The notes beneath the pieces were generated by a model. That model was not told the origin of the DNA, ran no database searches, and worked only from the letters and a program-made list of their open reading frames with translations. Source: Minisyncoccia bacterium (GTDB lineage: Bacteria; Patescibacteriota; Minisyncoccia; UBA6257; JAAZHW01). Taken from it: a stretch of DNA of 64,000 bases. Below are positions 1,021-64,000 of the stretch, in pieces (the first letter of the stretch is position 1; each line of letters opens with the position of its first letter). The stretch is taken from NCBI GenBank assembly GCA_049720475.1, contig JBNASH010000033.1:3784-67783 (forward strand), read 5' to 3'. The translations under genes and the position numbers were made by a program.

Positions 1021-1629
1021 TTAAAACCTGATGCTATTAATAAAATTGTTTATCCACTCAATGGGCAAATTGACTTTTTGCAAAAAGAAAACAACAATCG
1101 CCAATGGCAGCCATAAATAATAAAGGGGCAGGCGTTGATTAAACTGAATTTTTTTAAAAGCCAGCTGAACTAAATAAAGAATAATGGCAATGATTAAAAT
1201 TAAGAAAATATAAACGAGCCACATCGGATGCCCTAAAAAGATTATAGCATAAAATAACATCCATGGCTCTTCTTTTTCAAAAAAACGCTCGCCAGCCAAA
1301 CGATTTAAGATATTGGCTAAAAAGAAAAATAACAAGCCCACCAAAATAGGAAAAATCGCAGGCAAAAGAAAACGGTAATCAATATAGTGCAAAAAGAATT
1401 GAGATAATTTCTGATAGGGAGGAAGCAAATAAACAGCAATTTCGGAATTTTTAAATATTAAAAACTGCCCAATTACCTTAATGGTTAATTCAGCAATTTT
1501 CAAAATTAAAATTAAAATGACAGCAGGTTTGATTAACTGCTGGATTTTTTTAAACCCAATAATCAAACCTGCTGTAAGAACGAAATAAACAAAAGGCAGC
1601 TGATTTATAAGTCCATTTAAAAATTGCAT
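1021..1629 (-). CDS. Polytopic membrane protein of unknown function, between pilin and pilB
   Basis: 202-aa ORF with about 6 hydrophobic segments, 5 nt upstream of the pilB start. No GxGD prepilin-peptidase motif seen, so function is left open. Confidence 0.5.
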   Translation of the reverse strand: MQFLNGLINQLPFVYFVLTAGLIIGFKKIQQLIKPAVILILILKIAELTIKVIGQFLIFKNSEIAVYLLPPYQKLSQFFLHYIDYRFLLPAIFPILVGLLFFFLANILNRLAGERFFEKEEPWMLFYAIIFLGHPMWLVYIFLILIIAIILYLVQLAFKKIQFNQRLPLYYLWLPLAIVVFFLQKVNLPIEWINNFINSIRF

Positions 1630-1663
1630 AAAAAATTAATATCTGATAGTTAGAATAAAATGC

Positions 1664-2227
1664 TTAGAATAAAGTCAGATCTGAACCAACTTCATAAAGA
1701 TCACTATTATTCCCACCGTCTTTGCTTTCTACATCACCGGAACCACCATTAGAATAATAATTAGATTCCATATTGGCGTCCAGTTCAAAAGTCGTAGAGG
1801 CTGTTTTTGTTCCGTAATAATAAACATAGGAGGTTGTTGCGGATGTAGATGTTGTATTTTTAGGATCAATTGGTAAGGAAGAAAGAGGAGAACCAGAAGA
1901 AATGGAAGTAAAATTGATCGGGATCCATCCGCCGGTAATCGCCTGGGTAGTAGTGCCAGTAACACTTGAGCAAAGTGTACCACTTGCTGGAGCGCCAACT
2001 TGACTAGCGTAACAAGATGGTACTGATGATCCCATACTTGGCGAACTAACATCGGAAACGTACAAGTTAATCGCTGTTCTTAAGGCATCTAAATCAGCAA
2101 TTCTTTTGGTATCGCGGGTTTTCTTTAACATTTCCGCTGGATTTAAAGTAACAACAATCACACTCATTAACACCGCCAAAATAGCAATAACAACCAATAA
2201 TTCAATTAAAGTAAAACCTTTTTTCAT
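1664..2227 (-). CDS. Type IV pilin-like protein (class III signal peptide)
   Basis: N-terminus MKKGFTLIELLVVIAILAVLMSV carries the G/FTLIEL prepilin cleavage-methylation motif plus a hydrophobic helix. The core is Ser/Thr/Gly-rich and variable. Confidence 0.85.
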   Translation of the reverse strand: MKKGFTLIELLVVIAILAVLMSVIVVTLNPAEMLKKTRDTKRIADLDALRTAINLYVSDVSSPSMGSSVPSCYASQVGAPASGTLCSSVTGTTTQAITGGWIPINFTSISSGSPLSSLPIDPKNTTSTSATTSYVYYYGTKTASTTFELDANMESNYYSNGGSGDVESKDGGNNSDLYEVGSDLTLF

Positions 2228-2260
2228 ATTAATTAATTTTTGTTTTTAAATTAATTATTT

Positions 2261-2330
2261 CGACTTTTTAATATTTTCGACCTTTTGTTTTTAAATGATT
2301 TACATATTCTTTTTTTTTAAACGACCTTTT
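2261..2330 (-). promoter_or_regulatory. Three direct AAAARGTCG repeats in the spacer between the two pilin genes
   Basis: Plus-strand CGACTTTTT (2261), CGACCTTTTG (2278) and CGACCTTTTT (2322). A TATAAT (minus sense) lies at about 2331..2336. Confidence 0.25.
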
Positions 2331-2349
2331 TATTATAACAAATTTTAAA

Positions 2350-2931
2350 CTAATTTAAAATACTTAAATCCGAACCAATTTCATAAATTGTAGAGTTATT
2401 TCCACCATCTGTAGTTTCCAAAGAGGCATAGGCACTTGACTCTAAATTAGCATTTAATTCATAAGTTGTTAAGCTGCTTGAGGCGGCAAACACATAATAA
2501 TACCCTGAAGAAGTACTATTGGTTGGATCAATTGGCAATGCTGAAATTGGTGAGCGCAGAGTTAAAACACTAAAATTAATTGGTAGCCATCCTGTCGTAC
2601 CTATCGTCCGATAATTACTTAAAGCAGCACAATAAGCTGTTCGTCCACCATAAGAACCGCAGGTGCCAGCACTAGCTAATGGCACAGAAAGATAAGCATA
2701 GGTGGTGTAGCCGGAAAAATTATAATCCTCAGATAAATACAAATTTAATGCCGTTCTTAACGCCGCTAAATCAGAAAGTCTTCGTGAATCTCGAGATTTT
2801 TTTAACATTTCTGAAGGGTTTAAAGTAATTACAATCACACTCATTAACACCGCCAAAATAGCAATAACTATCAATAATTCAATCAAAGTAAAACCTTTTA
2901 AGGAGCTTTTCTGAATATTTTTCTTTGACAT
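2350..2931 (-). CDS. Type IV pilin-like protein, tandem paralogue
   Basis: KGFTLIELLIVIAILAVLMSV motif. The 5-prime ~100 nt and the C-terminal DGGNNSxxYExGSDL are conserved with 1664..2227, while the middle is divergent. Confidence 0.85.
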   Translation of the reverse strand: MSKKNIQKSSLKGFTLIELLIVIAILAVLMSVIVITLNPSEMLKKSRDSRRLSDLAALRTALNLYLSEDYNFSGYTTYAYLSVPLASAGTCGSYGGRTAYCAALSNYRTIGTTGWLPINFSVLTLRSPISALPIDPTNSTSSGYYYVFAASSSLTTYELNANLESSAYASLETTDGGNNSTIYEIGSDLSILN

Positions 2932-2971
2932 TTTGAAAAATTAGAAGTTTATTTTATTTATACCGGCTTTT

Positions 2972-3361
2972 TTATTTTTTGCTTTTATTTAAAAATTCTT
3001 TAATTTTAAAAATTAAATCATCAATGGAAATTTTGGCTTTAACAAAATATTCAACCGCGCCCAATTGTTTGCCTTTTTGAATATCAGTTGTTTGTCCAAG
3101 ATTGGAAATAATAATTACTGGTTTGTTCCTTAAACTAGGATTTTTGGAAATGTTTTCTAAAACTTCAAAACCACTTTTCTTAGGCAAAATTAAATCTAAT
3201 AAAATTAAATCGGGTTCAATTTCATTTAATTTTTTTATCGCTTCATCACCATCCACAGCGGAAATAACCTCCATTTGTTCCTTTTGGAGACGCAATTTTA
3301 AAAGATTAGACAAAAAAGGATCATCTTCAATAACTAAAATTTTAGCCATTGTTTCTGCCAT
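2972..3361 (-). CDS. Single-domain response regulator (CheY-like receiver)
   Basis: KILVIEDDPFL...DLILLDLILPKKSGFEVL...PVIIISN...K receiver signature. No output domain. Confidence 0.85.
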   Translation of the reverse strand: MAETMAKILVIEDDPFLSNLLKLRLQKEQMEVISAVDGDEAIKKLNEIEPDLILLDLILPKKSGFEVLENISKNPSLRNKPVIIISNLGQTTDIQKGKQLGAVEYFVKAKISIDDLIFKIKEFLNKSKK

Positions 3362-3460: not shown

Positions 3461-3570
3461 GTTAAAAAATAAATCTCTTTTTCATTGTTTCGTGCCGCCC
3501 ATCGCTATTCTAAAAAGAATAGCGAACCGACCTAAGGACCTCATTCTCAGCGAGAATGAGCGTCATCCTT

Positions 3571-5095
<1,525 letters not shown>

Positions 5096-5208
5096 AAAAA
5101 ATTTGATCTAACCCCATCCGATTATTATCGAATGGGACTAATACAACTCAAAGGACGACACGAAACAATGAAGAAAAAATTTATTTTTTGTTATTAATGT
5201 GCTAAAAA

Positions 5209-9176: not shown

Positions 9177-10892
9177 CTAAATCGTTTTTTCATCAATTAA
9201 AACTTTGATTCTGTTGGGATTTAAAGGTGTAAACTTTAGGAATTTTGGCCAGATGTCTATTTCTACTTTATTGATAGTTTTATATTGCTTTAAAAATGAT
9301 TCGAGATTATTAACATTTTTTCCTGCCAAATTATTAATGAATTCAGATAAAGAAATTCTGTCACAGAAAACCAAATTAGCAGTAACAGGAAAAGATAAAA
9401 GTTTTTTATCAAAATCAAATCGAGCAGCGCCATAATTGAATTGATAACTAAATAATTCTTTATCCGATAATTGAGAATTGCTTTTTTGGGCTTCATTAAC
9501 AAACAATTTTTTAATATCTTCTTCATTAAATACCAAACTCTTCATCGTAATTTTAGCAGTAGCCTCAAATTGTTCTGCTTTTTCATCTAGTTTTGGATTG
9601 GTTGAAAAACTGACAATTGTAATTTGTTTCGCATCAGGCAAAACAATATCATTAGAAAGCAATTTACTCTTTAACTCTTCTTCCAAAGAAAGAGAAGCAA
9701 TTTCAATTAATTTACTTTTGGCTTGATTAATATCTGATTGACCAACTACTTTTGTTGTTCCTATATAACCACCGGTCATCGGCGAAAGAGATTCAGCATA
9801 AAATTTAGTATAGCGCGGCGTCCCTTCAAAACCAGGAATAGTAAAGGTTGTTGGGCCAATATTATAAGATTCGCCGGCTTGATCAGCGACAACTTCCGCA
9901 TCAATATAAGACGGAACAATTTTTCCATCCTGAATTTTAGCGCCGGGAATTGTTGTTTTGTTTACTAATCTAAAAAGTTTTCCTTCTTTTGATAAAAATC
10001 TTGTTGTTGCCACCAAAACCTGGGGTTCGGAGCTATAAGCATTATAAATTCTTATTGTACCCCTGGCTTTAGCTTGAATAGTTTTTATTTCGGTGGCAGG
10101 AAAGTTTTGAGTAATTGTACGGGAGAATTCAAAAAATTTTACAGGGATTTTAAAATTAGTTTGATCAATCTCGCTAATTCCAGCTGTTGCTAAAACTGGA
10201 ATTTGCTCGGACCAATTATATTTATTAGAAAAAATTCTTACTTCTGCTTTGGCAATAAAATAAATAAGGAAAAAAATGAGGAGAACAAAAACGAAAACGG
10301 AGGCTGACAAAATTTTGATGCCTTTTGTAATTTTAATTTTTGGCTTGAAAGATTTTTCTCTTTTTATTTCTGCTTCATCCAATTCAACGCCGCTGAAATC
10401 TGCTTCGTCAAAATAATCTGTAAAAAATTTTTTCTCAGTATTAATTTTACTCTCCTCACCTTTACCTTTTTTAACCTCAACTTTTTTGGGTTTTTCTGTT
10501 TCTATTTTTTGAATAATTTCTTTAATCTCTGGCAATTCTTCTTCTGATCTCACATCGATTTTCTTTTCAGTTTTTTTTCTTTTTGGTGGCTTAATATCAC
10601 CTAGAAAATTTTTTGTTTTTGGCTTAGGCCTGCTTATTTCTGCCATTTCAATTAATTTCATTCCTGCTTCTTTGGCCATAGCCACAATCTCCTCAACATC
10701 GCTACTAACAAAAAGTTTTTTATCAGCAGCAGCCGCTTCTCTTTTGATCAATTTGAAATTTAACAAAGAATCGGCGATTTTTGCGTTTTGCGGAATAATT
10801 AAAACAACGGTGTCGTTTTTAGAATTAATAATTTTTTCAACGACCTCAGAAACCGATTCAGTTATATCAACATAAATATTTTCTGCTTTCAT
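9177..10892 (-). CDS. Hypothetical membrane-anchored protein (571 aa)
   Basis: N-terminal cytoplasmic domain, Lys/Glu-rich linker, one TM helix (ILSASVFVFVLLIFFLIYFIA) and a large beta-rich extracytoplasmic part. I recognised no family. Confidence 0.5.
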   Translation of the reverse strand: MKAENIYVDITESVSEVVEKIINSKNDTVVLIIPQNAKIADSLLNFKLIKREAAAADKKLFVSSDVEEIVAMAKEAGMKLIEMAEISRPKPKTKNFLGDIKPPKRKKTEKKIDVRSEEELPEIKEIIQKIETEKPKKVEVKKGKGEESKINTEKKFFTDYFDEADFSGVELDEAEIKREKSFKPKIKITKGIKILSASVFVFVLLIFFLIYFIAKAEVRIFSNKYNWSEQIPVLATAGISEIDQTNFKIPVKFFEFSRTITQNFPATEIKTIQAKARGTIRIYNAYSSEPQVLVATTRFLSKEGKLFRLVNKTTIPGAKIQDGKIVPSYIDAEVVADQAGESYNIGPTTFTIPGFEGTPRYTKFYAESLSPMTGGYIGTTKVVGQSDINQAKSKLIEIASLSLEEELKSKLLSNDIVLPDAKQITIVSFSTNPKLDEKAEQFEATAKITMKSLVFNEEDIKKLFVNEAQKSNSQLSDKELFSYQFNYGAARFDFDKKLLSFPVTANLVFCDRISLSEFINNLAGKNVNNLESFLKQYKTINKVEIDIWPKFLKFTPLNPNRIKVLIDEKTI

Positions 10893-60171: not shown

Positions 60172-60990
60172 TTACAATCCCATCTTCTGTTTCAATTCAT
60201 CAATAATTATCAAAACATCTACGCAACGATTATTGCTTAATAATTCATCAGCTTGTTTTAACTGATTTATAACTTCTTCTTTTTCCTCCATACTGAAATC
60301 TATGTAATCAATTTTGTCTTTAATATAATTTAAATCGTCTTCCAAATAAACAGGGCAATGATTAATTTTTTCTTCTGCTTCTGATTTTAAGGCAAAAACT
60401 TTATTTTCTACTTCCTGCAGTTGATTTTGAATTTTAACTATTTCGCTTGCCGATTCGTTTTTATTTGCAATTTGTTTCAAACTCTCTTTTGCTTTGTTGG
60501 TTTCTTTTTGTAATTGTTCGGATAAAATAGCCACTTGTTGAGGATTGGAAATTTGTTTTATTTGATTGGTCAATTCCTCTAAATTCTGAGCAACGGTTTC
60601 AAAAGCCAGCTGATTGTAATAATCACCTACTTTTTTATTTAAATCATTAACGACTGCTTGCGTCAGCATCATTTTCAAATCCAACTTGTATTCAGCCGGC
60701 GCTAAAGCAATTAAGCTTTTATTTATTAAGAGTTTAAAGCTGTAAAGAGGGCTATCAATGGAAGCGGTTTGAGCTAAATTAACGATACCGCCGAACAAAA
60801 GCAAGAAAGCACAAAAAACGGCTGCTAATTTATATTTCCAACCAAAAACAAAAATAGGCGCTTGAGCGCTTTTTATTTCAGTTTTCTCAATTTGGGCCAT
60901 TAAAATTCTTTTGCTTGAATCCAACCATTCTTGATCAGGCCTTATCATCTTTAATTGTTTGATTCTGGCAATAATTTCGGCTTTTTTCAT
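60172..60990 (-). CDS. Hypothetical single-pass membrane protein with an extracytoplasmic coiled coil
   Basis: One TM (LAAVFCAFLLLFGGIV) after a ~50-aa cytoplasmic head, as in anti-sigma-like layouts. No motif recognised. Confidence 0.45.
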   Translation of the reverse strand: MKKAEIIARIKQLKMIRPDQEWLDSSKRILMAQIEKTEIKSAQAPIFVFGWKYKLAAVFCAFLLLFGGIVNLAQTASIDSPLYSFKLLINKSLIALAPAEYKLDLKMMLTQAVVNDLNKKVGDYYNQLAFETVAQNLEELTNQIKQISNPQQVAILSEQLQKETNKAKESLKQIANKNESASEIVKIQNQLQEVENKVFALKSEAEEKINHCPVYLEDDLNYIKDKIDYIDFSMEEKEEVINQLKQADELLSNNRCVDVLIIIDELKQKMGL

Positions 60991-61036: not shown

Positions 61037-62710
61037 TTAATAACCAAACCATTGACGATTGGCAATAGCCCGCGTTAAAGGACCAAAATAACCGGTGGCT
61101 GGCAGACCATTTTTCTGCTGGAATTTTTGAATGGCTGCCTTGGTTAGATCCAAAAAATTACCAGTGATTAATCTTTCGCTATAAAGATCGGGTTCTTTTT
61201 CAGAAAGCATCTTTTGCAAACACTTTACTTCATTATCATTTCTTAAACCATAATACAAGTCTCTTTGGAAAAATGAGCAAGAAAGATTTGTTTGATTCAT
61301 TGCGTTCAATTGAGCAATAAGCGTTGATAGCTGGGCTTTTAATTGAGCAATCCGTTGAGTGAGCTGCTCTATTAAAGCAGAATTATTGGAAGCGCTGCTA
61401 GAAATTTGAGCATCATACTTGAATAAAACGCCGCCGGAAGAGCTATCGGTAATTATTGGTAAAAGATAAAGAGTATTGGTATCAACGCCGAAATCATTAA
61501 TCGAGATTGTCCCTTTTTTATTCTCACTACTAACCGTTTCAATCTTTTTGTTGTTACTTTTATCAGTGGTGATATAAACTAAAATAAATTGGGTGTCTTG
61601 AGGAAATTCATAATAAATTTTTAAATCACCTCGGCCGCCACTAATTTTAATCCAGTTGCCAGCATATAAATTTAAATAAGTGCTAGCAGTTAAAGAAACC
61701 ACGCCATATTCCGGCAAATAGGTAGTATAGGGATAAATATGAAAGTTTTTTAAATTAGCATTATCAAAACAATAAAGTTTGCCCAACGAACAATCATTAA
61801 AAAGGAGGGTAATCAACCAATTTTTGAAAATAGTATTAAAATCTTCCGAATAACCATTTTTTGCTAAAGCATAATTGATGGAAGCAATACCAGTTAAATT
61901 AGAACGCAAAGAGTCAACTAAAATTTTAATGCCATACTTCTCAACAATGTATTCTGCTAAAAGATGGACCGCGGCATAATCGCTGTTTGTACCTCTAAAT
62001 TCTAACAAAGAAAAGCTTGGGTTTTGACGTAAATCATTAAGATGTTTTTCTAAAAAACTGCCGCTTAAATTAGTGTTATAACCCAAAAAGGTGGAGAGAT
62101 AATCAGAACGCGCTTCGGCTAACCAGCGCTCATCGTCAGAATTAACAAAAATCCCCTTTTGATTAAACGAAATAAGATGCAATACTTCATGAGAAAGATA
62201 ATAGCCAAGTTGATTAATCGACGCGTCCCAAAAAATACTCGTGCTTAAATAAACCATCTCATGCTGATTGGAAAAATTGCCAGAGGCGGCTGGCAAAGAA
62301 TCAACAAAGCGAGCATAACCAACATAATTTTCTTTCAAAGGATGAATTAAAACATAAATGTGGTAATCATTGTCATAGCCGGGAAGCGCTTCAGAGCCAA
62401 AAGTAGCAACAATTCGTGGATAATCGTACTGCTCAAAATAAGTAGCTAAGGTAGCAAATTTGGCGCTGATGGTGTTTTGATTATTGAAAGAAAGGCTTTG
62501 CCACCAATTAGTATCAACGAAAAAATTAAGTTTATTGGTTTGATAAACAAGGGTGGCATTAAGTTGATTGCGCGAATAATAATCATAATCGCTTTCAACA
62601 TAAAAAACGCTCTGAGAATTAATTGATTGCGCAAAAACAGCTGGCGAGAGAAAAACAAAAAGTGCCGCGATAATAAAGATAATTTTCCAATTAAATATCT
62701 TTTTTGGCAT
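61037..62710 (-). CDS. Secreted protein with an HExxH motif and a C-terminal peptidoglycan-binding domain (track ORF extends to 62746)
   Basis: Signal peptide MPKKIFNWKIIFIIAALFVFLSPAVFA, SHEVLHLISF, and C-terminal QKFQQKNGLPATGYFGPLT. TTGAAA-17-TATAAT ends 7 nt before the ATG at 62710. Confidence 0.65.
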   Translation of the reverse strand: MPKKIFNWKIIFIIAALFVFLSPAVFAQSINSQSVFYVESDYDYYSRNQLNATLVYQTNKLNFFVDTNWWQSLSFNNQNTISAKFATLATYFEQYDYPRIVATFGSEALPGYDNDYHIYVLIHPLKENYVGYARFVDSLPAASGNFSNQHEMVYLSTSIFWDASINQLGYYLSHEVLHLISFNQKGIFVNSDDERWLAEARSDYLSTFLGYNTNLSGSFLEKHLNDLRQNPSFSLLEFRGTNSDYAAVHLLAEYIVEKYGIKILVDSLRSNLTGIASINYALAKNGYSEDFNTIFKNWLITLLFNDCSLGKLYCFDNANLKNFHIYPYTTYLPEYGVVSLTASTYLNLYAGNWIKISGGRGDLKIYYEFPQDTQFILVYITTDKSNNKKIETVSSENKKGTISINDFGVDTNTLYLLPIITDSSSGGVLFKYDAQISSSASNNSALIEQLTQRIAQLKAQLSTLIAQLNAMNQTNLSCSFFQRDLYYGLRNDNEVKCLQKMLSEKEPDLYSERLITGNFLDLTKAAIQKFQQKNGLPATGYFGPLTRAIANRQWFGY

Positions 62711-62775
62711 TTTTTTGATTATAAAATAAAAAAGATGAGGTTTCAATAATGAAAGGAAAATGAAAGGAAAAAGAA

Positions 62776-62806
62776 AAGCGGCTGCGTTGTCCCAACGCAG
62801 CCGCTT
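62776..62806. terminator. 13-bp bidirectional terminator at the left edge of the GC-rich island
   Basis: AAGCGGCTGCGTT-GTCCC-AACGCAGCCGCTT, with A-run/T-run flanks, 5 nt after the stop of 62811..63605. Confidence 0.8.
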
Positions 62807-62810
62807 GTTT

Positions 62811-63605
62811 TTAATTTTCTTCTTGGAAGTCCCTCAGGGACAGGCCCCGAGGGTTTTTTTCTACCTCATCCGCTGCCCGAAGGGGCAATTCCTTGCCCCT
62901 TCTCGCCTCAACCACCCTTCTTTTTTCTTTTATTTTTTTATTTTTAGAAGGGGAAGGGGAGGCAGGGGAGGCAGGCTCCGGTGGTTGTGGCCGAATTAGT
63001 TGCGGTGGACGGGTTGGGATTGGGACTTTTTTAAGCCCCGCTTCCCATTTGGGGTTGGGAAGTCTCCGATCGGACTCAAAGAGTTCGACCGAGACTTTCA
63101 GGATTTCCTCGTCAACCTGACCGACGAGGAAATCCCGCAGGGATTCCTTATCCCGCACATAGTGCGGGATATCAATCATTACTCTCTCTCTTTCTAAGAG
63201 AGAGTAATGATTTCCCTGACGGGCTACCCCTAGGTAGTCCGCCACCAGTTTCCGGCCATGGAACCGTACAACGGTCCCATTCCGGAAAAGAAGTAACCAC
63301 TTCCCCACTTTATTGTTAAAGTGGGGAGTGATAAGTTTGTTCTCCCCAACCACTACAGCCCAGCCCTTGGGACCGGGCACAGAAAGGGAAATCTGAAACC
63401 ACTGGGGCTGCCCCAGTTGGGGCAAAAACACCCAAGGTTTCACAATTCCCCGCTCTACCACCACGCACGGCACTTTCAGCCGTGCTTTTAAAGGATCAAA
63501 GTGGACGCCCTGAAGGGCGCCACTTTTAATCCTCTCCAGAATGTCCTGCGGTTTGGGAATGCGTTCCCAAACCGCCCAGATTTTCAAAAAATTACTCCTG
63601 ATCAT
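62811..63605 (-). CDS. Hypothetical protein (264 aa) of the GC-rich island: beta-rich N-domain, Pro-rich linker, basic tail
   Basis: ATG preceded by TTAAAAATTTAATAGGAGGTTTTAA. Plausible protein composition. The ORF is overlaid by many perfect hairpins (see findings). Confidence 0.55.
   Translation of the reverse strand: MIRSNFLKIWAVWERIPKPQDILERIKSGALQGVHFDPLKARLKVPCVVVERGIVKPWVFLPQLGQPQWFQISLSVPGPKGWAVVVGENKLITPHFNNKVGKWLLLFRNGTVVRFHGRKLVADYLGVARQGNHYSLLERERVMIDIPHYVRDKESLRDFLVGQVDEEILKVSVELFESDRRLPNPKWEAGLKKVPIPTRPPQLIRPQPPEPASPASPSPSKNKKIKEKRRVVEARRGKELPLRAADEVEKNPRGLSLRDFQEEN
63101..63212. repeat. Three consecutive perfect inverted repeats (13, 10 and 16 bp stems) inside the ORF
   Basis: GGATTTCCTCGTC-N9-GACGAGGAAATCC (63101..63135); TATCCCGCAC-ATA-GTGCGGGATA (63149..63171); AATCATTACTCTCTCT-N7-AGAGAGAGTAATGATT (63174..63212). 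Confidence 0.9.
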
Positions 63606-63628
63606 TTAAAACCTCCTATTAAATTTTT

Positions 63629-63672
63629 AACAAGGTGTGGCCCGGGCCGATAGCCCTAAGGTTCACCTTGTT
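63629..63672 (-). promoter_or_regulatory. 5-prime-UTR stem-loop immediately upstream of the SD leader
   Basis: AACAAGGTG...CACCTTGTT 9-bp stem enclosing GGCCCGGGCC and GGGC-N5-GCCC sub-helices. A TATTGACTTTTT promoter-like box lies at 63701..63712. Confidence 0.5.
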
Positions 63673-63726
63673 GCTGTTTTAAGAATATCATAAAAATACA
63701 AAAAGTCAATAGGGTTGAAGAATAAA

Positions 63727-63746
63727 AGCGGGCTTAAAAGCCCGCT
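63727..63746 (-). terminator. Intrinsic terminator with the stop codon in the loop
   Basis: Minus strand AGCGGGC-TTTTAA-GCCCGCT followed by TTTATTC. The TAA of 63734..63931 lies in the loop. Confidence 0.7.
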
Positions 63747-63931
63747 TTTTTTCTTTCGCCCTTTTCCTTCTTCCTGTCCTCTAGGACAGAAAGAAGGACC
63801 ATTAAAAAGACTGAGAACAGCATCAGTCCCCCAGTCAACCCCGTCCATCCAACCTTTTCCTGTCCCCACGGCCGAAAGGCGTAGAGAACCAGATTCTCAA
63901 TTAATAACAAAAACAATAAAAAATATTTCAT
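63734..63931 (-). CDS. Small 2-TM membrane protein (65 aa) of the GC-rich island
   Basis: ATG at 63931 preceded by GAAAGGAGGTTTTTTG. MKYFLLFLLLIENLVLYAF...GLMLFSVFLMVLLSVL...KKEKGERKKAGF. A TATTGACTTTTT box lies at 63989..64000. Confidence 0.55.
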   Translation of the reverse strand: MKYFLLFLLLIENLVLYAFRPWGQEKVGWTGLTGGLMLFSVFLMVLLSVLEDRKKEKGERKKAGF

Positions 63932-64000
63932 CAAAAAACCTCCTTTCTTTTTTTTAAAAAGCTTCTTATATTCCAGCATAAAAATTTAAAAAAGTCAATA

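Follow-up and report, generated by a model that had tools for sequence, protein, structure and literature searches.

A G+C-rich block in a Patescibacteria genome as a possible product of selection for a hyper-structured mRNA in a vertically inherited coding gene

We analyzed a G+C-rich block at the right end of a 64-kb stretch of DNA (referred to here as the window). The block consisted essentially of one gene encoding a 264-aa protein and one small membrane-protein gene. The reading that we prefer, and hold with about even confidence, is that the block represents a vertically inherited, lineage-restricted Patescibacteria gene whose G+C content results from selection for a hyper-structured mRNA. 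An earlier note on this DNA had described the block as an island and raised an episomal or chimeric origin as something to check; the island reading is mostly wrong, and we do not regard the block as freshly acquired. The features of the locus are as follows.

62718..62746, minus strand: promoter-like site of the next gene (TTGAAA-17-TATAAT, 11/12)
62776..62806, no strand assigned: intrinsic terminator for the 264-aa gene, with a 3-nt loop on a perfect 14-bp stem; both strands have T-runs and look terminator-like
62811..63605, minus strand: 264-aa protein-coding gene (ORF, homologues, coding signature; G+C 0.51, GC3 0.55)
62957..62974, minus strand: tandem GGGAGGCAG x2 (plus-strand letters) in the hypervariable Pro-rich linker, encoding PASPAS
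63606..63675, minus strand: 5' leader of the 264-aa gene (stem-loop and Shine-Dalgarno [SD] sequence)
63682..63711, minus strand: promoter of the 264-aa gene (TATTGACTTTTT box with -35 TTGACT, 16-nt spacer, TG-extended -10 TATTCT)
63724..63749, no strand assigned: terminator of the small gene (11-bp stem)
63734..63931, minus strand: gene for a 65-aa two-helix membrane protein (MKYFLLF...; ORF with an AGGAGG SD upstream)
63989..64000, minus strand: second TATTGACTTTTT promoter box (sequence match), upstream of the small gene and cut by the window edge

In 200-nt windows, the G+C content rose from 0.31-0.35 (62400-62800) to 0.51-0.525 (62800-63600), i.e., a break at ~62.8 kb from about 0.32 to 0.51 in a surrounding genome of 0.34. 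Among 1-kb windows over the 64 kb, the sole equal in G+C was the 16S rRNA gene (4001-5000, 0.529). The sharp change that the earlier note had seen at the 62776..62806 terminator was thus borne out at both scales, and its hand counts of single 60-nt lines (34/60, 33/60, and 12/60) were all exact on recount. The terminator itself was present, with a perfect 14-bp stem and a 3-nt loop rather than the 13 bp described. To the left of the block, the next gene encodes a PG_binding_1 protein (ATG at 62710) and has host composition; the promoter-like site at 62718..62746 forms the left border of the G+C-rich unit. The block had also been thought to run on past the window, perhaps with integrase or replication genes. 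An independent, 99%-identical contig (L011) instead carried, beyond position 64000, a spacer of ~300 nt followed by the 3' end of a PG_binding_1 protein gene with a G+C content of ~0.42, and such mobility genes were found neither there nor in a second relative (L004).

On sequence evidence, the 264-aa ORF (CDS length, 795 nt) is clearly a bona fide protein-coding gene: its dN/dS was 0.15-0.33 and column variability peaked at third codon positions (0.44/0.30/0.72 for the three positions). Indels among orthologues stayed in frame. According to homologue searches, the protein family is an orphan confined to Patescibacteria. Searches of Pfam, PHROGs, NCBIfam, PADLOC, and PDB sequences (with the single sequence and with a profile) returned nothing meaningful for the protein, and the GTDB representatives, IMG/VR, and phage and plasmid collections contained no real relatives of the gene. 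Neither sequence nor fold comparison with viral proteins revealed any similarity, neither a muralytic or other enzyme domain nor a signal peptide was detected, and literature searches for a described equivalent found nothing specific. AlphaFold reached a pLDDT of 81.5 with a 23-sequence alignment vs only 49 with 11 close sequences. The predicted layout comprises a well-predicted N-terminal domain of no known fold, a hypervariable, basic, Pro/Gln-rich linker, and a conserved G-x-S-L-x-D-F peptide at the C terminus; the tail is disordered and Lys/Arg rich, with a net charge that is only mildly positive. The tandem repeat reported earlier as encoding PASPASP was present, with GGGAGGCAG copies starting at 62957 and 62966 (encoded context, ...EPASPASPSPS...); it is predicted to pair with Arg/Gly/Glu-rich codons downstream.

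The gene was G+C rich in every lineage examined (G+C, 0.44-0.60; GC3, 0.44-0.75), and the GC3 of neighbouring and ribosomal-protein genes (0.24-0.32) was far lower. Expression-linked codon bias was considered as a source of the high GC3 and ruled out, given a GC3 of 0.24-0.31 in the ribosomal-protein genes.

We retrieved the genomic context of relatives through homologues of the window's proteins. At least eight independent assemblies of related Patescibacteria, ultra-small bacteria of the CPR, carried the 264-aa gene and the small gene in the same gene order. Synteny was conserved in contigs L001-L009, L011, and L022-L024, with the 264-aa gene at a constant position upstream of genes for PG_binding_1, a 273-aa protein, Wzy_C, DsbA, Grx, and HisK. 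A distant-lineage homologue (L019; 25-30% identical) also lies beside HisK, Grx, and DsbA, and the small gene adjoins the large gene in L019 as well as in another distant lineage (L018). No empty site or patchy presence of the 264-aa gene was found in related contigs; only neighbouring cassettes varied. Upstream of the gene, the cassette content varies among relatives: there is nothing in L007, the small gene in the window, L004, and L011, and a 99-aa gene together with an SLT gene and the small gene in L002, L003, L005, and L006. L001 carries the latter three genes plus an extra hairpin-rich cassette (minimum free energy [MFE], -0.64 kcal/mol per nt; 13 perfect hairpins in 594 nt), whose ORF, found in L001 and L024, is a singleton unrelated to the 264-aa gene.

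The predicted MFE of the 264-aa gene was -404.9 kcal/mol, compared with -277.0±7.3 kcal/mol for synonymous-codon shuffles (z = -17.5); dinucleotide shuffles gave z = -17.6. With synonymous shuffles, the orthologues ranged from -13 to -20, and two neighbouring genes scored +0.5 and -2.1. Some 73% of the mRNA bases are predicted to pair, and over 37-75 C the predicted stability per nucleotide exceeds that of the 16S rRNA of the same organism. The gene ranked highest in the 64 kb for predicted structure even with G+C regressed out, and no other gene in the 64 kb displayed a comparable hairpin or structure pattern. About 18 local hairpins in a row are predicted along the CDS, and six perfect hairpins of at least 8 bp were present vs 0.29 expected (maximum, 3 in 200 shuffles). 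The earlier note had described one hairpin inside a coding sequence, that of the small gene; the many found here turned out to be the key feature of the locus. The following hairpins of the 264-aa CDS are discussed here.

62879..62902, minus strand: perfect 10-bp hairpin spanning the RRGKxxPLR codons, which are conserved in the C-terminal tail (orthologues, CGGAGAGGAA/TTCCTCTCCG)
63101..63135, minus strand: perfect 13-bp hairpin (predicted); orthologues have different perfect stems at the same codons (18 bp in L004)
63149..63171, minus strand: perfect 10-bp hairpin (orthologues, TGTCCCGCAC/GTGCGGGACA, a compensatory A-U to G-C change)
63174..63212, minus strand: perfect 16-bp hairpin (helix 14); orthologue stem with five compensatory pairs
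63302..63327, minus strand: perfect 11-bp hairpin (predicted)
63465..63485, minus strand: 7-8-bp hairpin, conserved in both clade A and clade B, that spans the codons of the invariant A-R-x-K-x-P-C motif
63548..63575, minus strand: perfect 12-bp hairpin over codons 11-20 (predicted)

Predicted structure was absent from the first ~30 nt and the SD region, and the G+C content of the first 30 nt was 0.07-0.37. Relative to shuffles, the energy gain of the sense strand exceeded that of the antisense strand by 15-32 kcal/mol. The confinement of the G+C excess to paired bases (0.60 vs 0.29 in unpaired bases) was real, but it was mostly reproduced by synonymous shuffles (0.61 vs 0.36) and constitutes weak evidence. 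Rfam at permissive thresholds yielded only generic hairpin and terminator look-alikes (best match, 28.9 bits vs a gathering score of 58.7), and no common loop or stem motif was seen among the CDS hairpins. We also considered whether the hairpin arms follow a codon:anticodon register. This applied to 62% of the consensus pairs, but per hairpin the preference was marginal in the window gene (6/9, P = 0.04). Neither the orthologues nor the L001 cassette displayed it, and the idea was dropped.

Conservation of the pairing was assessed with eight to seventeen related sequences, and much of the covariation rests on two or three clades; the number of independent covariation events is therefore small. 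Across eight orthologues, 93.3% of the cells of 193 consensus pairs were paired, compared with 36-49% when the partners were slid. Double (compensatory) changes occurred in 39 of these 193 pairs vs 21±3 in shuffles (0/500) and 7-13 in slid controls. Paired columns were less variable than unpaired columns at all three codon positions, and hairpin positions were kept across clades with only 46% protein identity. The hairpin over the A-R-x-K-x-P-C codons, for example, exhibited synonymous compensatory changes between clades (CGG/CCG to AGG/CCT). Isolated mismatches inside Watson-Crick stems were G·U in 29 cases vs A·C in 7, and this fourfold tolerance of G·U points to the mRNA as the probable strand on which pairing is maintained. 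In a second, strand-symmetric test, which scored Watson-Crick stems at orthologous positions, G·U was only weakly in excess (154 vs 118 and 460 vs 413). Structured RNAs are generically recognized by folding energies well below those of composition-matched controls and by compensatory changes beyond controls; the 264-aa gene displayed both, the latter from few independent lineages. These patterns suggest that codon choice, and even some amino acid changes in the protein, may co-evolve with the pairing partner.

The sequences flanking the CDS were also conserved. The promoter was nearly invariant in all orthologues. In the leader, an AGGAGG SD sequence (63612-63617) is preceded by a nearly invariant 40-nt stem-loop at 63631-63670 (CAAGGUG...GGGCUAUCGGCCC...CACCUUG); the leader comprises 16 pairs, of which 6 are compensatory between clades, and its loops are invariant. 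It occurs once per locus, only upstream of the 264-aa gene, and nowhere else in 235 kb. The TATTGACTTTTT box occurs exactly twice in the window, at 63700-63711 and 63989-64000, both on the minus strand; the earlier note had both boxes, with the coordinate of the first off by one. Its description of modular units was confirmed, as each gene has its own promoter-like site, AGGAGG SD, and terminator. The stop codon of the small gene (63736-63734), which had been placed in the terminator loop, does lie within the terminator (63724-63749) but precisely at the junction of the loop and the 3' arm. The hairpin inside the small gene, noted as 13/14 bp at 63766..63797, is present and measured 15/16 complementary positions (63765-63780/63783-63798); it is conserved in six orthologues.

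On the basis of these results, we propose that the 264-aa gene is probably an independent transcription unit with a conserved strong promoter, a structured leader, a hairpin-rich CDS, and a 14-bp terminator, in which the ribosome-binding and start region would be left open and A+U rich. G+C-rich segments in A+T-rich genomes are known to mark structured RNAs (PMC6429828). Selection for stable RNA stems in an A+T-rich genome would then have left its mark as G+C enrichment, just as it makes the rRNA and tRNA genes stand out there, and the same RNA encodes a selectively constrained protein. We infer that the selection on structure concerns mRNA stability or translation control. Most likely, the pervasive structure, together with the 5' stem-loop, the perfect SD, and the strong 3' hairpin, would make a long-lived, RNase-resistant mRNA, or would, alternatively or in addition, throttle elongation. 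The invariant leader may serve as a gene-specific cis-regulatory site, possibly through feedback by the product. A wider proposal, which we consider rather doubtful, is that Patescibacteria carry a so far unrecognized class of "hairpin-saturated" coding cassettes in which the transcript itself is a functional or protected RNA, with the L001 cassette as a second member. Such a cassette may be a promoter-leader-ORF-terminator unit with rRNA-like structure and a protein that co-evolves with the pairing, and its transcript may be an ultra-stable or a packaged or exported mRNA, or may form a ribonucleoprotein with its own product.

Several other explanations need to be weighed against selection on the mRNA. 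An unlikely one is mutational: at a recombination hot spot, G+C-biased gene conversion would raise GC3, and intrastrand template switching (i.e., quasi-palindrome correction) would continually create and perfect inverted repeats, leaving the hairpins and the "compensatory" changes as unselected by-products. Perfect pairing over 10-18 bp, as in many of the stems, is uncommon in functional RNAs, and the second strand test above gave only a weak G·U bias. Both dS and dN in close strains also far exceeded those of the flanking gene: dS between the window and L004 was 0.186 in the 264-aa gene vs 0.009 in the flank, and dS in a second close comparison was 0.71 vs 0.35. L024 carries a mosaic allele made up of parts of those in L007 and L001, and this mosaicism, together with a dS above that of the flank, indicates that recombination, possibly G+C biased, is also acting. 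In the distant L019 homologue, GC3 is 0.75 (0.62 at unpaired positions) with a structure z of only -3.3; stems thus cannot explain all of the G+C there. Arguing against a purely mutational origin, hairpin positions persist at 46% protein identity with synonymous compensatory changes, and the 29 G·U vs 7 A·C mismatches are not predicted by a DNA-level copying mechanism. The structure-free start and SD region, the lower variability of paired columns, the covariation of the leader stem-loop, and the uniqueness of the pattern within 64 kb likewise count against the mutational reading. Quite unlikely, in our estimation, is a dual-function RNA or ribonucleoprotein in which the transcript is a scaffold or cargo for the basic disordered tail of its own product, together with the small membrane protein. 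Capsid-like proteins are known to bind their own RNA. This possibility would fit the predicted stability above that of 16S rRNA, the covariation along the whole CDS, the novel fold with its Lys/Arg-rich tail and conserved terminal peptide, and the pairing with the small gene across deep divergence; the invariant leader and conserved loop nucleotides would suggest a specific binding partner. The hairpins, however, share neither a loop nor a stem motif that would offer a binding partner repeated sites, and they form a string of simple local elements rather than an intricate tertiary architecture, and the net charge of the tail is only mildly positive.

A mobile island or cassette array from a foreign G+C-rich donor, virus, or plasmid that has not yet ameliorated seems improbable. 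The block does have the atypical composition of genomic islands (G+C, 0.51 vs 0.34; GC3, 0.55 vs ~0.30), with atypical codon usage and self-contained promoter-gene-terminator modules whose repeated promoter boxes could mediate cassette gain and loss. Neighbouring cassettes, including the singleton hairpin-rich ORF of L001 and L024, vary among near-identical strains, the small protein has a sub-threshold holin-like match, and a G+C content of 0.59-0.60 in the L018 homologue and its small gene suggests that a G+C-rich donor lineage may exist. Against an acquired island or episome, the 264-aa gene occupies the same site in all relatives, with the same neighbours in a distant lineage, and is G+C rich in all lineages; high GC3 was retained across lineages in which HisK is only 59% identical, which is time enough for amelioration. 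No mobility gene (integrase, transposase, relaxase, or replication gene) was present in the block or past its edge in L011 and L004, and no Pfam, PHROG, NCBIfam, or PADLOC family gave a hit; homologues were likewise absent from IMG/VR and the phage and plasmid collections. Nor was there a tRNA at the boundaries or an att-like direct repeat of the kind that the earlier note had proposed to look for; the nearest tRNA is ~7.8 kb away and the sole repeat is the promoter box. Synteny combined with host-like codon usage had been named as what would speak against the island, and although the synteny was conserved across relatives, the codon usage was not host-like. A chimeric join near 62.75 kb, also raised earlier, has a negligible probability: its sole support is the abrupt compositional change at a hairpin, whereas both junctions recur in independent NCBI, JGI, and Logan assemblies, and the 99%-identical JGI contig spans the whole block.

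Selection for a structured coding RNA, our preferred reading, can be compared with several known systems. The GC-IGR approach found the large noncoding RNAs (ncRNAs) OLE, GOLLD, and ROOL in A+T-rich genomes (PMC6429828, PMC11109978). The 264-aa gene resembles such G+C-rich ncRNA genes in its composition (~0.5 in a 0.34 genome, equal to the 16S rRNA gene of the organism), its very strong predicted structure, its covarying pairs, and its narrow lineage. It differs in being a 264-aa coding sequence with a dN/dS of 0.15-0.33, in matching no Rfam family, and in folding into simple hairpins strung one after another, not into a complex multi-junction structure. In the genomes of single-stranded RNA phages (Leviviricetes, e.g., MS2) and in viroid-like Obelisk RNAs, the coding RNA is mostly paired, with covarying hairpins inside ORFs and a small membrane or lysis-like gene beside a larger gene. 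The 264-aa gene shares all of these properties (i.e., an RNA predicted to be mostly paired, covarying ORF hairpins, and an adjoining small membrane-protein gene). Unlike those replicons, it is encoded in DNA, has a fixed position in the chromosome, and is served by a sigma-70-type promoter and by intrinsic terminators; its RNA is a series of local hairpins rather than the rod-like global fold of Obelisks, and no replicase, coat, maturation, or Oblin homologue was found at the locus.

Certain bacterial mRNAs are stabilized by terminal stem-loops (i.e., the ompA 5' UTR, the STAB-SD of cry genes, S-layer mRNA leaders, and puf intercistronic hairpins), and a 5' stem-loop, an SD, a strong 3' hairpin, and a strong promoter make up the classical recipe for long-lived, highly expressed transcripts. 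The 264-aa gene has a 5' stem-loop near the predicted transcript start, AGGAGG, a 3' hairpin, and its own promoter. The known stabilizers lie in untranslated regions, whereas here the whole coding region is predicted to be folded too, at a cost to codon usage and apparently to amino acid choice. Dual-function RNAs (RNAIII/hld, SgrS/SgrT, and SR1/SR1P) likewise combine conserved RNA structure and a translated ORF in one transcript, but the ORFs within those regulatory RNAs specify peptides of 26-60 aa; here, a 264-aa ORF fills the transcript, and there is no known base-pairing target. A genomic island or integron cassette array has a similar compositional anomaly, self-contained modules, and variable neighbouring cassettes. 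The locus differs in lacking an integrase, attC/attI, a tRNA, and a direct-repeat boundary, its core gene is syntenic and vertical, and every unit has its own promoter and a plain terminator whereas integron cassettes are usually promoterless. A phage-type lysis cassette (holin plus endolysin) in a cell-wall gene neighbourhood is suggested by the two-helix protein and by the SLT and PG_binding_1 genes nearby in relatives. However, the match of the small protein to Phage_holin_2 (Pfam) scored 20.8 bits, under the cutoff of 32, the 264-aa protein lacks both a muralytic domain and a signal peptide, and the chromosomes that conserve the gene pair have no other phage genes.

Compositional anomalies in bacteria are routinely taken as horizontal transfer; here, RNA-structure selection that persists across lineages in a coding gene seems a better explanation. 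If this is true, the gene would represent, at an extreme for bacteria, the optimisation of one sequence for both a protein and near-complete RNA folding, a combination so far familiar, to our knowledge, mainly from RNA viruses. For annotation pipelines and G+C-based finders of ncRNAs and islands, the locus is a warning that "coding," "structured RNA," and "foreign" can overlap. It would also offer a tractable ~800-nt system for studying how ribosomes and RNases handle heavily structured messages, and would inform how RNA pairing constrains protein evolution. The role of an orphan, novel-fold protein and a small membrane protein in a cell-envelope locus of CPR bacteria would then become approachable.

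The G+C content of the 64-kb window was 0.338. In 200-nt windows, it rose from 0.31-0.35 to 0.51-0.525 between 62.7 and 62.9 kb, stayed on a plateau until ~63.6 kb, and was 0.35 to 0.47 from there to the window edge. The sharp compositional break that an earlier note had placed near 62.8 kb is thus present, and the hand counts of G+C in that note were exact on recount. Among 1-kb windows, the only other segment that matched the block was the bacterial 16S rRNA gene (3569-5099, minus strand; G+C, 0.54); the window also contains five tRNAs (G+C, 0.55 to 0.65). No 23S or 5S gene lies beside the 16S gene. Its flanks are filled by protein-coding open reading frames (ORFs; 1021-3361 and 5282 onward), and the rRNA genes are therefore unlinked in this genome.

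The block was laid out as follows.

64000-63989, minus strand, TATTGACTTTTT promoter box upstream of the small gene
63931-63734, minus strand, SD and 65-aa membrane-protein gene (the small gene)
63749-63724, minus-strand layout, terminator of the small gene
63709-63682, minus strand, promoter of the 264-aa gene (TTGACT, 16 nt, TG-extended TATTCT)
Between this promoter and AGGAGG, minus strand, leader of the 264-aa gene (~70 nt)
63605-62811, minus strand, 264-aa gene, preceded by AGGAGG
62806-62776, minus-strand layout, 14-bp terminator of the 264-aa gene
Downstream of the 14-bp terminator, minus strand, TTGAAA-17-TATAAT promoter of the next gene, which has host composition

We recovered the terminator at the left border, both TATTGACTTTTT boxes (one previously misplaced by one position), the stop codon of the small gene at its terminator loop, the hairpin inside that gene, and the GGGAGGCAG repeat in the 264-aa gene, all reported earlier.

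The 264-aa gene is truly protein-coding. Among its alignment columns, 44% of first, 30% of second, and 72% of third codon positions were variable, dN/dS was 0.15 to 0.33, and all length differences among orthologues were in frame and within a Pro/Gln-rich linker. For residues 1 to 170, AlphaFold (23-sequence alignment) predicted, with pLDDT above 90, a domain that is mostly beta and then three helices; residues 195 to 264 form a disordered tail, which closes with a conserved peptide, RGxSLRDF, seen again as G-x-S-L-x-D-F/V in distant members. In having a globular domain, then a disordered linker and a terminal peptide, the protein is reminiscent of FtsZ or SSB with their partner-docking tails. 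The C-terminal (R/K/P)G-x-S-L-x-D-(F/V/L) motif, followed by acidic residues (codons at 62811-62860), was kept even where the remaining tail was unalignable (distant homologous proteins P0013, P0015, P0016, P0018, P0020, and P0021). Searches of Pfam, PHROG, NCBIfam, and PADLOC assigned the protein to no family.

The coding sequence contained nine perfect hairpins (7 to 16 bp; loops, 3 to 9 nt); elsewhere in the 64 kb, perfect hairpins of at least 9 bp that contain G+C were nearly all intergenic, with terminator-like placement. Relative to shuffles that kept protein and codon usage, six hairpins of at least 8 bp were observed versus 0.29 expected (200 shuffles; maximum, 3), and the minimum free energy (MFE) was -404.9 kcal/mol versus -277.0±7.3 (25 of those shuffles; z = -17.5). 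The z values were -13 to -20 for five orthologues, and +0.5 and -2.1 for two neighbouring genes. With 73% of nucleotides paired, the predicted fold was more stable per nucleotide than the organism's own 16S rRNA at 37, 55, 65, and 75°C. Once the effect of G+C on MFE had been regressed out across 852 windows of 150 nt, the gene accounted for the three most extreme and for 14 of the top 26. Paired bases were richer in G+C than unpaired bases (0.60 versus 0.29), a contrast that folding such a sequence would mostly produce in any case (shuffle control, 0.61 versus 0.36).

Fourth in this G+C-corrected ranking of the 64 kb was a separate region, 1400-1600 (minus strand; MFE, -53.5 kcal/mol versus -32.5±3.9 in shuffles; z = -5.35), with two long A+U-rich hairpins (e.g., CAGCAGGUUUGAUUA...UAAUCAAACCUGCUG). 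It lies inside an unannotated 202-aa ORF (1021..1629) that adjoins a pilin-like (N_methyl) gene (1664..2227).

Orthologues of the 264-aa gene carried stems at the same codons with differing sequences. One stem was GCACGGC/GCCGTGC, GCACGGG/CCCGTGC, or, in clade B (an orthologue group), GCAAGGG/CCCTTGC, the last through synonymous changes of CGG to AGG (Arg) and of CCG to CCT (Pro) where the peptide A-R-x-K-x-P-C is invariant. Two further stems varied likewise (TATCCCGCAC/GTGCGGGATA versus TGTCCCGCAC/GTGCGGGACA; TCTCCAATCCC/GGGATTGGAGA versus TCTCTAACCCC/GGGGTTAGAGA). For the first 600 nt of eight orthologues, RNAalifold gave 18 helices with 193 pairs, and 93.3% of cells were paired in the consensus versus 36 to 49% with slid partners. 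Both-sided changes, drawn from few independent lineages, occurred at 39 pairs versus 21±3 in column shuffles (0 of 500 reached 39) and 7 to 13 in slid controls. Paired columns varied less than unpaired ones at each codon position. Some amino acid replacements were themselves paired; therefore, the structure shapes the protein.

Regarding the strand, stems were defined in a strand-symmetric way, from Watson-Crick runs only, and the isolated mismatches within them were 29 G·U versus 7 A·C; in a cruder count based on orthologues, the figures were only 154 versus 118. Measured against its own dinucleotide shuffles, the sense strand showed a gain 15 to 32 kcal/mol larger than that of the antisense strand. 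Our conclusion, at moderate confidence, is that selection acts on the structure of the mRNA strand. The first 30 nt of the coding sequence were A+U-rich (G+C, 0.07 to 0.37), and the SD region was predicted to be unpaired.

Promoter and leader were more conserved than the gene itself. The leader contains an ~40-nt stem-loop with an inner 4- to 5-bp helix; 6 of its 16 pairs switched compensatorily between clades A and B, with invariant loop and bulge sequences. A covariance model found exactly one copy per locus, always before the 264-aa gene, and none elsewhere in 235 kb. Neither the leader nor the gene's RNA matched Rfam. In the distant lineages L019 and L018, the small gene directly adjoins the large gene without this leader, and the two are presumably co-transcribed.

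A hypothetical protein from a metagenome-assembled genome (MAG) of Minisyncoccia (Patescibacteria/CPR) matched the 264-aa product at 100% identity. There were 11 close homologues among 5.8 billion clusters and 15 profile matches among 1.84 billion representatives, all from Patescibacteria MAGs or metagenomes. The same PG_binding_1 gene lay directly downstream in every contig long enough to show context, followed in longer contigs, as in the window, by 273-aa, Wzy_C, DsbA, glutaredoxin, and histidine-kinase genes. Even the L019 homologue (~25 to 30% identical) adjoins a 67-aa membrane-protein gene and HisK, Grx, and DsbA genes, its HisK being 59% identical to that of the window. The 272-aa neighbour (60172-60990, minus strand), conserved in all relatives, had weak coiled-coil-type matches to the SMC-like defence proteins LmuB, DruC, and JetC (E, ~2e-3 to 7e-3), probably reflecting a generic coiled coil; its identities between strains were either ~99% or ~71% and therefore define two allele classes.

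These data run against the proposal of a recent foreign island, as the gene is syntenic in relatives including L019, and neither the block nor the extension of L011 (an independent, 99%-identical contig) held an integrase, tRNA, or att-like repeat. Nor does an island run on past the window edge: L011 reaches 960 nt farther, and all that lies there is spacer and the terminal part of a PG_binding_1 gene. A chimeric join near 62.75 kb was excluded, since the same junctions recur in NCBI, JGI, and Logan assemblies. The gene had G+C of 0.51 to 0.57 (GC3, 0.54 to 0.66) in the window's clade, 0.44 in clade B, and 0.56 (GC3, 0.75) in L019; GC3 of neighbouring genes, ribosomal-protein genes included, was 0.18 to 0.32. 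A foreign signature should fade over such divergence, yet the gene is G+C-rich in every lineage; therefore, something maintains its G+C. High GC3 in L019 came without strong excess structure (z = -3.3). We conclude that the compositional block is not a recent island.

Cassette content between the ~626-aa PG_binding_1 gene and the 264-aa gene varied among close relatives.

L007:6153-6559 (also L008), no cassette
Window 63606-64000 (also L004 and L011), small gene alone
L002:8537-9864 (also L003, L005, and L006), 99-aa gene, SLT_2 lytic transglycosylase gene, and small gene
L001:7794-9885, 99-aa gene, SLT_2 gene, small gene, and an extra cassette

Repeated promoter boxes flanking the units could mediate cassette gain or loss. 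The extra cassette (L001:9146-9885; GCA_026415775.1), between the small gene and the 264-aa gene, begins with the same TATTGACTTTTT promoter box and a leader that forms a hairpin, followed by an SD, a 197-aa ORF (ATG at 9281), and its own terminator; its 3' part recurs, identical, in L024:1-235. The ORF (G+C, 0.55) contains 13 perfect hairpins of at least 7 bp in 594 nt; its predicted fold has an MFE of -0.64 kcal/mol per nt, 78% of the bases are paired, and its product was a singleton among 5.8 billion clusters. The cassette could represent another "hairpin-saturated" gene; alternatively, the ORF could have arisen by chance in a structured RNA.

Three other explanations were weighed. Divergence was elevated within the gene: dS was 0.186 versus 0.009 in the flank (window versus L004), dN was 0.151 versus 0.017 (L001 versus L002), and dS was 2 to 20 times that of the adjacent PG_binding_1 gene. 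The L024 allele (L024:351-1217) is a mosaic of L007:6560-7396 (nt 1 to 225, 100% identical) and L001:10001-10834 (nt 226 to 300 and 451 to 525, ~100%), which shows that co-occurring strains have recombined within the gene. GC3 could be raised further by G+C-biased conversion. A mutational origin, through a recombination hot spot and palindrome-generating template switching, would fit this divergence; weighed beside the both-sided changes in stems, we consider it unlikely. A dual-function RNA or RNP, to which the invariant leader loop might point, seems slightly less probable again. A residual mobile-cassette scenario is favoured by the variable neighbouring cassettes and the hairpin-rich singleton ORF in L001; set against the synteny, and with no relatives of the block's gene in IMG/VR, phage, or plasmid collections, it appears quite improbable.

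The best-supported explanation is that the gene is vertically inherited and that its hyper-structured mRNA has left the compositional "island" as a footprint. Structured RNAs are set apart from the rest of an A+T-rich genome by the same principle (PMC6429828). The predicted structure presumably forms in vivo. A 5' stem-loop, a perfect SD, and a strong 3' hairpin are the architecture of long-lived bacterial mRNAs; by analogy, their presence here suggests that the structure may serve transcript longevity, RNase resistance, or translational throttling. The leader would be a putative regulatory binding site.

Bacterial untranslated regions are known to carry stabilising hairpins, and selection on RNA structure inside coding sequence has precedents, chiefly in RNA viruses. 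We found no description in the literature of a chromosomal bacterial gene folded to such a degree along its whole length, and no RNA or protein family for the 264-aa gene. The IVYWREL amino acid fraction of the whole window was 0.427 (35 ORFs; 14,187 aa), which would place the growth optimum near 65°C by the regression on this fraction reportedly given by Zeldovich in 2007. The host may be a moderate thermophile; if so, G+C-rich stems alone would stay stable in vivo.
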